From sequence record OQ703770.1: 37,009 bases of DNA; one strand, 5' to 3'. Shown here in pieces: positions 6,948 to 7,858 of the stretch. A program made the position numbers and the translations under genes. Source of the stretch: Escherichia phage PGX1. The number at the start of each line of letters is the position of its first letter. The first letter of the stretch is position 1. A model generated the notes under the pieces. The model saw only the letters and a list, made by a program, of their open reading frames with translations. It searched no databases and had not been told where the DNA came from.

Positions 6948-7403
6948 GTGGCTGGCGCATACGCTGCGCGTGGAATCCGAAAGGTCGGGACATTCCGTTC
7001 CGGCCTAGAAGATAAGGTCTCTAAGCAGCTAGAGAGTAAAGGTATACAGTTTGACTACGAGCAGTGGAAGATTCCATACGTAGTCCCTGCGAGTAATCAT
7101 ACCTATTGTCCAGATTTTCTACTGCCCAATGGTATCTTTATCGAGACCAAAGGACTATGGGAAAGTGATGACCGCAAGAAGCACCTACTGATTCGCGAGC
7201 AGATGCCCGAGCTAGATATACGACTTGTGTTCTCAAGCTCCCGCACAAAGCTCTACAAAGGGTCTCCAACGTCCTATGCAGAATTTTGTGAAAAGCACGG
7301 CATCAAGTTTGCTGATAAGCTGATTCCAGTTGAGTGGCTCAAAGAGCCTAAACGGGAGGTGCCATTCGATAAGCTCAAACAGTCAAAAGGGGTTAAGAAG
7401 TGA
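6948..7403 (+). CDS. 3: Gene 3 endonuclease I, Holliday-junction resolvase (GTG start; 151 aa)
   Basis: (M)AGAYAARGIRKVGTFRSGLEDKVSKQLESKGIQF...PDFLLPNGIFIETKGLWESDDRKKHLLIREQ..., about 85% match to T7 gp3; starts directly after the gene 2.5 stop. T7 gene 2.8 is absent here. Confidence 0.9.
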   Translation: MAGAYAARGIRKVGTFRSGLEDKVSKQLESKGIQFDYEQWKIPYVVPASNHTYCPDFLLPNGIFIETKGLWESDDRKKHLLIREQMPELDIRLVFSSSRTKLYKGSPTSYAEFCEKHGIKFADKLIPVEWLKEPKREVPFDKLKQSKGVKK

Positions 7404-7858
7404 TTCATCCAAAACTCTTGATAGAGCCGACCGATTCCTGTATTGAATGGACAGGCGCGTTCCACAAGAACGGGTACGGAGTAATCTCTTTGAATCGCAA
7501 AGTAGCTGCCGAACTAGGAATACCTAGGGTGCAATTTGTACACAGGGCAAGCTACATGCAGCATAAAGGAACTATAGGTGATGGACTTGTTGTTCGTCAC
7601 CTGTGTCACAACAGAAAGTGTTTCAACCCAGCTCACTTGGAAGTCGGCACTCAGTACGATAACTTCGAAGATAGTGTTAAGGTTGGGCGCAACAAACGTA
7701 AACTGCTTGATGAGGACGTTAAATCAATTAGAGAGTCCACAATGAGTAACCGCAAGTTAGCCAAGCTATACGGTGTTAGCTCTACAACGATCTTCCACAT
7801 CAAGCACAACAACAAGTGGAGGAATTTAAATGGCACGAGTACAATTCAAACAGCGTGA
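7400..7858 (+). CDS. HNH-family homing endonuclease (152 aa) inserted between gene 3 and gene 3.5
   Basis: Motifs CIEWTG...NGYG...GLVVRHLCHNRKCFNPAHLEVGT (HNH with Cys/His metal ligands); paralogous in pattern to the 7.7-like HNH at 16600-16995; GTG start overlaps the gene 3 stop. Confidence 0.8.
   Translation: MIHPKLLIEPTDSCIEWTGAFHKNGYGVISLNRKVAAELGIPRVQFVHRASYMQHKGTIGDGLVVRHLCHNRKCFNPAHLEVGTQYDNFEDSVKVGRNKRKLLDEDVKSIRESTMSNRKLAKLYGVSSTTIFHIKHNNKWRNLNGTSTIQTA

Follow-up and report, generated by a model that had tools for sequence, protein, structure and literature searches.

In Escherichia phage PGX1 an open reading frame (ORF) for an HNH endonuclease separates gene 3 (endonuclease I) from gene 3.5, a lysozyme gene that is disrupted in this genome. 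A sequence-only reading of the genome took this ORF for an extra homing endonuclease gene and for a plausible agent, or marker, of the mosaic structure around it. The locus raises two questions: what the gene is, and whether it had any part in the loss of the lysozyme. Coordinates are positions in the window, by which we mean the whole stretch of 37,009 nt that was analysed (Escherichia phage PGX1, record OQ703770.1).

Identity and distribution of gene 3.3

Whole-genome comparison identified PGX1 as a T7-like phage genome (Teseptimavirus) covering T7 coordinates 185-39708. The nearest records were JacobBurckhardt (MZ501078) and ESh2 (ON528716), with about 92% identity. A laboratory recombinant of T7 was ruled out as the origin of PGX1, the longest exact match to T7 being 177 nt. 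The ORF and its upstream neighbour are as follows.

6948-7403, plus strand: gene 3 (endonuclease I), the upstream flank (Pfam Phage_endo_I, E=2e-81; identity profile)
7400-7858, plus strand: gene 3.3 ortholog, encoding an HNH (His-Me finger) endonuclease with a C-terminal helix-turn-helix (HTH) (ORF, Pfam, orthologs, AlphaFold2 model)

The ORF was intact and 152 codons long. Its GTG start at 7400 overlapped the stop of gene 3 (TGA, 7401-7403), and its last 29 nt overlapped the start of gene 3.5 (ATG, 7830), placing its own stop inside gene 3.5. The start is supported by several orthologs that possess an ATG at the codon of GTG 7400. Gene 3 directly abuts gene 3.5 in T7, with nothing between them, and it does so in 22 HNH-less Teseptimavirus loci. 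The ORF is confirmed as a real, intact HNH endonuclease gene, and it does sit, as had been noticed from the sequence, where T7 has no gene. The adjoining gene 3 of PGX1 was a divergent allele, common only to the ESh2/JacobBurckhardt group.

The gene is not new, however, and the description of it as “extra” did not hold. It is a syntenic and already annotated gene of T7-like phages, corresponding to “protein 3.3” of phiA1122 (AY247822), a Yersinia pestis phage reportedly described by Garcia et al. in 2003 (PMID 12923098). The two proteins were 97% identical in amino acid sequence, with the same length, position and overlaps. Nothing substantial distinguished the PGX1 gene from the phiA1122 type, apart from a slightly weaker Shine-Dalgarno sequence ahead of the GTG (GGGG, vs GGAGG in the phiA1122-type gene). 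The protein, gp3.3, was 100% identical in JacobBurckhardt (bas65_0025) and ESh2, and its exact 152-aa sequence was present on six contigs, these two among them. In JacobBurckhardt, Yanou, vB_Yep_15 and Rambo the gene is labelled as a putative homing or HNH endonuclease, and in Klebsiella phage SH-Kp 152410 a gene at the same site is labelled “protein 3.3” (70% amino acid identity). A tblastn search with gp3.3 recovered 15 phage records with at least 80% identity and a further 42 in the 60-80% range, while a search of IMG/VR with gp3.3 alone detected phiA1122 as the sole match. All orthologs recovered from GenBank and public assemblies (63-100% amino acid identity) were located between Phage_endo_I and Amidase_2 genes. 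Gene 3.3 was carried by 15 of the 89 records that matched the gene 3 to 3.5 interval, so that the suspected presence/absence polymorphism among T7-like genomes is real. Gene 3.3 of PGX1 is one further copy of a gene annotated since 2003.

The absence of genes 2.8 and 3.8 from PGX1, also part of the earlier reading, was confirmed over the whole stretch. The possibility that 2.8 and 3.3 exclude each other around gene 3 was considered and ruled out, as one contig (L096) has both.

Domains, active site and relatives of gp3.3

gp3.3 matched Pfam HNH_3 (PF13392) over residues 46-88, with E=1.8e-10 and 40.7 bits vs a cut-off of 24.8. A match to Pfam zf-His_Me_endon was marginal and the C-terminal HTH matches were weak. 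In PHROGs the protein matched HNH endonuclease families (PHROG 59, “HNH endonuclease”, E=2e-30), and its homologs reached E=6e-98. An AlphaFold2 model built from the alignment (pLDDT 87, pTM 0.70) had a beta-beta-alpha core followed by three helices, and gp3.3 was assigned to the beta-beta-alpha-metal fold. The tail (residues 142-152), coded in the gene 3.5 overlap, was disordered. The two domains are located at:

7535-7663, plus strand: nuclease core, residues 46-88 (Pfam HNH_3)
7700-7810, plus strand: C-terminal three-helix HTH DNA-binding domain, residues about 101-137

Eight residues were invariant in an alignment of 30 homologs: C14, H48, H67, C69, C74, N76, H79 and N88. Of these, Cys14 is encoded at 7439-7441, His67 at 7598-7600 and Asn88 at 7661-7663. 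The catalytic His and Asn were thus both intact on careful alignment. Among solved structures, the sole sequence matches were to the catalytic loop of I-PpoI, with RHLCHNRKCFNPAHL aligned to SHLCHNTRCHNPLHL. In this alignment H67, C69, C74 and H79 of gp3.3 fell on H98, C100, C105 and H110 of I-PpoI, and N88 corresponded to N119 through an identical offset. In I-PpoI we take H98 to be the general base, N119 to hold the metal and the Cys/His residues to form the first zinc site, and we assume the same roles for H67, N88 and the Cys/His ligands of gp3.3. Judging from the alignment, Cys69, Cys74 and His79 would be zinc ligands, with Cys14 as the presumed fourth. gp3.3 is very probably an active nuclease. 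Where dS was unsaturated, dN/dS among gene 3.3 orthologs was 0.01-0.15, indicating purifying selection. The Pfam score, the homologs and this dN/dS place the ORF well outside what chance would give.

Two further HNH genes are present in the window:

13139-13444, plus strand: second HNH_3 gene, between genes 5 and 5.5, encoding 101 aa with the nuclease domain alone
16600-16995, plus strand: third HNH_3 gene, with an HTH, at the 7.7 position (38% identity to gp3.3 and 50% to T7 gp7.7)

Both are missing from JacobBurckhardt. The motif pattern thought to be common to the ORF at 7400-7858 and the one at 16600-16995 was borne out by pairwise comparison, in which gp3.3 proved to be a full-length paralog of the 7.7-position protein (E=4e-30). 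With the protein at 13139-13444 it shares the nuclease core only. This latter gene had been called 5.3-like. It is a real HNH_3 gene, but it resembles gene 5.3 by position only: T7 gp5.3 is a PD-(D/E)XK protein without similarity to it, so the PGX1 gene is a different nuclease in the 5.3 slot.

T7 gp7.7 and gp2.8 were full-length paralogs of gp3.3 at 38-42% identity (gp7.7 40%, gp2.8 39%; E values of 1e-24 to 1e-35), and both have its two domains in the same arrangement and its Cys/His/Asn pattern. Their sites differ from that of gene 3.3, lying between genes 7.3 and 8 and between genes 2.5 and 3, respectively. No similarity was detectable between gp3.3 and T7 gp3.8.

More distant nucleases were also compared with gp3.3. 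I-PpoI (PDB 1a73), a His-Cys box enzyme, is a dimeric enzyme of a eukaryotic rDNA intron and lacks an HTH, unlike gp3.3. Its second zinc site has no counterpart in gp3.3, whose nuclease domain contains no Cys or His after N88 and so does not have the two zinc sites (eight Cys/His residues) of the His-Cys box. gp3.3 is therefore not a strict His-Cys box protein, and the likeness is confined to the catalytic loop. I-HmuI (PDB 1u3e), the HNH nickase of an SPO1 phage intron, is intron-encoded, lacks the Cys3His zinc site and had 21% identity to gp3.3. The terminase-associated HNH proteins of the HK97 gp74 type were also a poor fit: gene 3.3 is sporadic and lies among class II DNA-metabolism genes, away from the PGX1 terminase genes at 33850 and 34668. 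The Seg and Mob genes of T4-like phages are intergenic, free-standing and sporadic, lie beside essential DNA-metabolism genes and show co-conversion of their flanks. Gene 3.3 resembles them in its free-standing, intergenic position next to DNA-metabolism genes, its sporadic occurrence and its signs of co-conversion. They differ from it in their DNA-binding domains (a zinc finger in Mob), in the GIY-YIG nuclease of Seg, and in that their cleavage and homing have been shown experimentally.

Insertion site, similarity island and the case for homing

Comparison of three HNH-bearing with eight HNH-less junctions resolved the insertion to the base.

7402-7828, plus strand: 427-bp insert relative to HNH-less relatives (junction alignment)
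7383-7399, plus strand: Shine-Dalgarno region at the end of gene 3, AAAGGGGTTAAGAA (junction alignment)
7814-7829, plus strand: putative replacement Shine-Dalgarno, GTGGAGGAATTTAA, within the 3′ end of gene 3.3 (sequence; kept in all HNH-bearing genomes)

HNH-less genomes read AAGAAAT/AATGGC at the junction, where the gene 3 stop overlaps the 3.5 start, while PGX1 reads AAGAAGT GATTCATC...GGAATTTA AATGGC. The gap between the gene 3 and gene 3.5 matches was 430 nt in HNH-bearing and 3 nt in HNH-less genomes. With the insert, gene 3 acquires a TGA stop and gene 3.5 a new Shine-Dalgarno sequence. The sequence AAAGGGGTTAAGAA probably serves gene 3.5 in HNH-less phages and the GTG start of gene 3.3 in PGX1, and the GGAGG in the 3′ end of gene 3.3 would then be the new ribosome-binding site of gene 3.5.

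The insert lies within a stretch of unusually high similarity to the five other genomes with identical gp3.3.

6942-7966, plus strand: similarity island comprising gene 3, gene 3.3 and the first 135 nt or so of gene 3.5 (segment identities, mismatch positions)
7944-7955, plus strand: lysozyme codons 39-42, ERGF (EQGW in HNH-less genomes), linked to the presence of gene 3.3 in Teseptimavirus

Identity to these five genomes was 97-100% within the island and 81-97% in the flanks (ligase, genes 1.6-2, gene 4 and gene 5). The island also contains the longest exact match genome-wide between PGX1 and JacobBurckhardt, 335 nt. Its right edge was sharp, at 7967: the 573 nt of 7394-7966 contained 2-3 mismatches vs 11-14 in 7967-8085, where identity fell to 87-91%. 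Since the mismatches to the right of 7967 were common to all comparators and the stretch was nearer to HNH-less genomes, the distal part of 3.5 differs in ancestry from the HNH block. Gene 3.3 also occurs on different backgrounds, as PGX1 and phiA1122 were 94% identical in gene 3.3 and only 78% in the body of gene 3. We consider the island a trace of recent exchange around gene 3.3, though recombination without a nuclease could also yield it. The idea that the whole 5′ part of 3.5 was inherited together with gene 3.3 was only partly true, as Yanou, vB_Yep_15 and Rambo have the HNH-less type at 7852-7940.

Two places emerged as candidate target sites. One is the gene 3/3.5 junction that the insert splits, at which the first codons of 3.5 differ synonymously (GCA CGA..CAA vs GCT CGT..CAG). 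The other is lysozyme codons 39-42. In the Teseptimavirus sample the linkage was perfect, with ERGF in all HNH-bearing genomes and EQGW in all 22 HNH-less ones. Yanou and vB_Yep_15 were no exception and kept ERGF, although the sequence between gene 3.3 and these codons matches the HNH-less type in both. The island ends about 10 nt past these codons. As a universal mark of HNH-bearing genomes ERGF was ruled out, however, since the association broke down in more divergent lineages: four HNH-bearing lineages (L087, L093, L095 and L097) have EQGW or EQGY, and one HNH-less lineage (L027) carries ERGF. From this distribution, codons 39-42 may tentatively be proposed as a target or immunity site within the Teseptimavirus clade, a suggestion that is rather doubtful.

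We suggest that gene 3.3 is a free-standing homing endonuclease gene, a phiA1122-type ortholog, with a probability of roughly 0.78; cleavage and homing are the inferred part. The reading draws on the identity of the gene, the fold and catalytic residues of its product, purifying selection, sporadic presence at one specific site, base-precise insertion and the flanking island. These features match the products of homing with co-conversion, although they fall short of proof. His67 of the HNH_3 domain would act as the general base and Asn88 would hold the catalytic metal, the Cys14/Cys69/Cys74/His79 zinc site would stabilise the fold, and the C-terminal HTH would provide sequence recognition. During mixed infection gp3.3 would nick or cut DNA of a related phage with the HNH-less allele, at the gene 3/3.5 junction or close to it, and recombinational repair from the HNH-bearing genome would then copy in the 427-bp gene with its flanking markers. 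Its own genome might be protected in two ways, by the splitting of the junction sequence and by the linked substitutions in the first 130 nt or so of 3.5. The insert would be harmless by design, taking over the ribosome-binding site of gene 3.5 and supplying a new one in its place. T7 genes 2.8, 3.8 and 7.7 have been treated as homing endonuclease genes (bioRxiv 10.1101/2025.09.07.674715). In the literature we found no cleavage, target-site or homing experiment on gp3.3 or its paralogs 2.8 and 7.7.

Some of the same evidence can be read otherwise. Strong purifying selection with saturated synonymous divergence at one site also fits a long-resident beneficial gene, ordinary module recombination could account for the island, and ERGF, the candidate immunity polymorphism, is missing from some HNH-bearing lineages. 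It is possible, if on balance unlikely, that gene 3.3 encodes a domesticated or dual-use nuclease or DNA-binding protein kept for its benefit to the phage and not purely selfish; it might, for example, act in interference competition by keeping out co-infecting relatives, or weaken a host defence that responds to DNA breaks. The low dN/dS and deep divergence at a single fixed site argue for such a benefit. So does the finding that T7 lacking 2.8, 3.8 and 7.7 was outcompeted by the wild type only when the GAPS4 defence was present, and that catalytically dead gp3.8 still counteracted GAPS4 (bioRxiv 10.1101/2025.09.07.674715). However, among individual proteins the effect on GAPS4 was demonstrated for gp3.8 only, a protein dissimilar to gp3.3, and most close relatives manage without gene 3.3. 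A benefit to the phage would, moreover, be compatible with homing.

Lysozyme lesion and missing RNA polymerase gene

Downstream of gene 3.3 the lysozyme gene is broken by a short copy of gene 16.

7830-8165, plus strand: truncated lysozyme fusion ORF, 111 aa, with gp3.5 residues 1-85, 25 residues from the gene 16 copy and a stop
8086-8161, plus strand: 76-nt exact, in-frame copy of gene 16 (source 28939-29014), outside the HNH element

Compared with JacobBurckhardt and phiA1122, PGX1 keeps lysozyme codons 1-85, and the gene 16 copy replaces about 214 bp comprising the 3′ end of 3.5 and the upstream part of a phi3.8-type promoter. Translation through the copy follows the frame of gene 16 (...VGGI-RGLATDMVRSPTGMESGSSGKFGST-stop), and microhomology at the junctions was at most 3 nt (ATT). 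Of the 131 positions of the lysozyme Pfam profile, the match spanned only 4-83. The amidase presumably lost its zinc-binding and catalytic residues with its C-terminal half, where we take them to lie. Neither the fusion protein, as an exact sequence, nor the junction string was matched in other records, IMG/VR or JGI metagenomes. A search for the exact gp4 sequence of PGX1 likewise gave no match. The disruption had been placed about 300 bp downstream of the HNH gene; the breakpoint (8086) was 228 nt after the gene 3.3 stop and 120 nt outside the similarity island. The absence of 3.8, which had been attributed to the same rearrangement, is common to the nearest relatives (JacobBurckhardt) and therefore does not belong to the lesion.

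A second lesion affects the RNA polymerase (RNAP) gene, gene 1, which PGX1 was seen to jump over in the whole-genome comparison.

3121-3210: gene 1 remnant, 29 codons in frame, the first 8 and last 21 RNAP codons joined (MNTINNAK followed by ALPAKGNLNLQDILKSDFAFA)

No further RNAP match was found elsewhere in PGX1. The junction was spanned by none of 547 matching phage records and by nothing in IMG/VR. The possibility that “T7” records of about 37 kb from BL21(DE3) are gene 1 deletants was also considered; in the one that was checked (PV223883), both gene 1 and an intact 3.5 are present. All phage promoters in PGX1 are of the T7 type, and a polymerase must therefore be supplied in trans. Lysozyme is an inhibitor that binds T7 RNA polymerase, and phages without 3.5 are viable, with late lysis (PMC2680503).

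Of the ways in which the lysozyme could have been lost, we lean towards one that links it to the deletion of gene 1, which seems somewhat better than an even chance. A helper host or a co-infecting phage would provide a T7-type RNAP in trans, and the HNH gene would be a bystander; alternatively, the PGX1 genome may simply be a defective variant. With the polymerase coming from elsewhere, loss of the lysozyme that inhibits it would be tolerated or selected. The 29-codon remnant, the uniformly T7-type promoters, the inhibition of RNAP by lysozyme and the viability of phages without 3.5 all support this, as does the fact that both lesions were private to PGX1 among the sequences searched, although the residual 85 N-terminal residues might still fold or bind. 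The two losses form a coherent pair independent of the HNH gene, and this is the more coherent explanation. That the lysozyme/gene 16 junction is instead a chimera of assembly or amplification is improbable. The copy is exact and its junction occurs in no other record, as a chimera might show, but the flanks are collinear on both sides, the insert is in frame, and a simple mis-join would not produce a short insert together with a 214-bp deletion and correct sequence on either side.

The remaining explanation, and a very improbable one, is that gp3.3 itself made a break in or near 3.5 and that illegitimate repair captured the 76 nt of gene 16 as filler. The proximity of the breakpoint to the gene 3.3 stop is in keeping with it, and the lesion, with its filler DNA and scant microhomology, looks like a product of break repair. 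However, all five other genomes with identical gp3.3 have an intact lysozyme of 151 aa, a homing endonuclease normally spares its own genome, the breakpoint lies beyond the similarity island, and the loss of gene 1 offers a selective reason that does not involve the HNH gene. Gene 3.3 is not to be blamed for the lysozyme lesion, and its agency is not supported. Of the proposal that the gene was agent or marker, the second half stands: it marks the mosaicism of the island, with its edge at 7967, and nothing found here ties it to the lesion.

A more far-reaching possibility, to which we give very little weight, is that PGX1 is a natural helper-dependent T7-like phage that lacks RNAP, has a crippled inhibitor and uses the polymerase of co-infecting relatives, while its three HNH genes (3.3 and those at the 5.3 and 7.7 sites) would cut the helper genome, into which stretches of the parasite would then be copied. 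In a smaller version, the gene 16 filler in the lysozyme may be the scar of a break by one of the three HNH nucleases.

For the T7 group the addition made here is modest. It consists of a base-level picture of the gene 3.3 insertion and a recently exchanged island of about 1 kb, along with two candidate target sites for a biochemically uncharacterised class of T7-group nucleases. Gene 3.3 itself is ordinary; the unusual feature of PGX1 is that it has no RNA polymerase gene and that half of the polymerase inhibitor is gone.

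Gene 3 and the spacer that carries the HNH gene

The HNH endonuclease gene 3.3 lies downstream of gene 3 (endonuclease I), whose body (window 7007-7399) is a divergent allele. This allele was 70-85% identical to the gene 3 body of most relatives, other HNH-bearing phages included, versus 96-99% in the ESh2/JacobBurckhardt group, the nearest relatives of PGX1. The adjoining gene 2.5 was 95-100% identical to all relatives.

In two HNH-less relatives, 232-264 bp separate gene 3 from gene 3.5, at about 4441-4673 in locus L027 and about 4423-4687 in locus L029. No HNH match was found in either spacer, and these spacers could represent a remnant or another small insert. 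The ERGF allele at lysozyme codons 39-42, the form found in HNH-bearing Teseptimavirus genomes, was also present in the HNH-less L027. A single metagenomic contig, L096, carried two HNH genes, one on either side of gene 3:

393-824, HNH gene at the 2.8 position
1231-1665, ortholog of 3.3

Since both occur on L096, the 2.8-position HNH and 3.3 are not mutually exclusive paralogs.

Other nuclease genes

Two further HNH genes were located in the window, and JacobBurckhardt lacked both:

13139-13444, nuclease-only HNH_3 gene between genes 5 and 5.5
16600-16995, HNH+HTH gene at the 7.7 position

In T7 the slot between genes 5 and 5.5 is instead occupied by the PD-(D/E)XK gene 5.3, which is unrelated to the HNH_3 gene; this slot is used by two different nuclease classes. 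T7 gp7.7 was only 50% identical to the HNH+HTH protein. An identical 3.3 is found in genomes with greatly differing nuclease gene content.

Lesions in lysozyme and RNA polymerase

The lysozyme (window 7830-8165) ends at codon 85 and is then fused in frame to an exact 76 nt copy of gene 16 (source at 28939-29014), corresponding to gp16 residues ~527-552. The upstream half of the phi3.8-type promoter is gone at this lesion, leaving only CTAAAGGCAGACC (8162-8174). The lesion was private to PGX1.

Gene 1, encoding the T7-type RNA polymerase, is deleted in frame, leaving a remnant at window 3121-3210:

3144/3145, gene 1 deletion junction

Only 29 codons remain, the first 8 and the last 21. No second RNA polymerase match was detected elsewhere in the window, and all phage promoters are T7-type despite the deletion. 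The junction was spanned by no phage record among 547 matching records, and its string was not found in IMG/VR.

Genome ends and tail fibre

Both window termini (1-80 and 36930-37009) lie inside repeated CCTAAAG-type arrays adjoining the genome ends. They correspond to T7 coordinates 185 and 39708, and the direct terminal repeats fall outside the window.

The C-terminal part of gene 17 (31382-33600) was strongly divergent from T7 and JacobBurckhardt, with no nucleotide match over 32220 to 33650. Across residues 1-485 the product showed 58% amino acid identity to that of T7. The divergence of the tail fibre suggests a different host receptor specificity.
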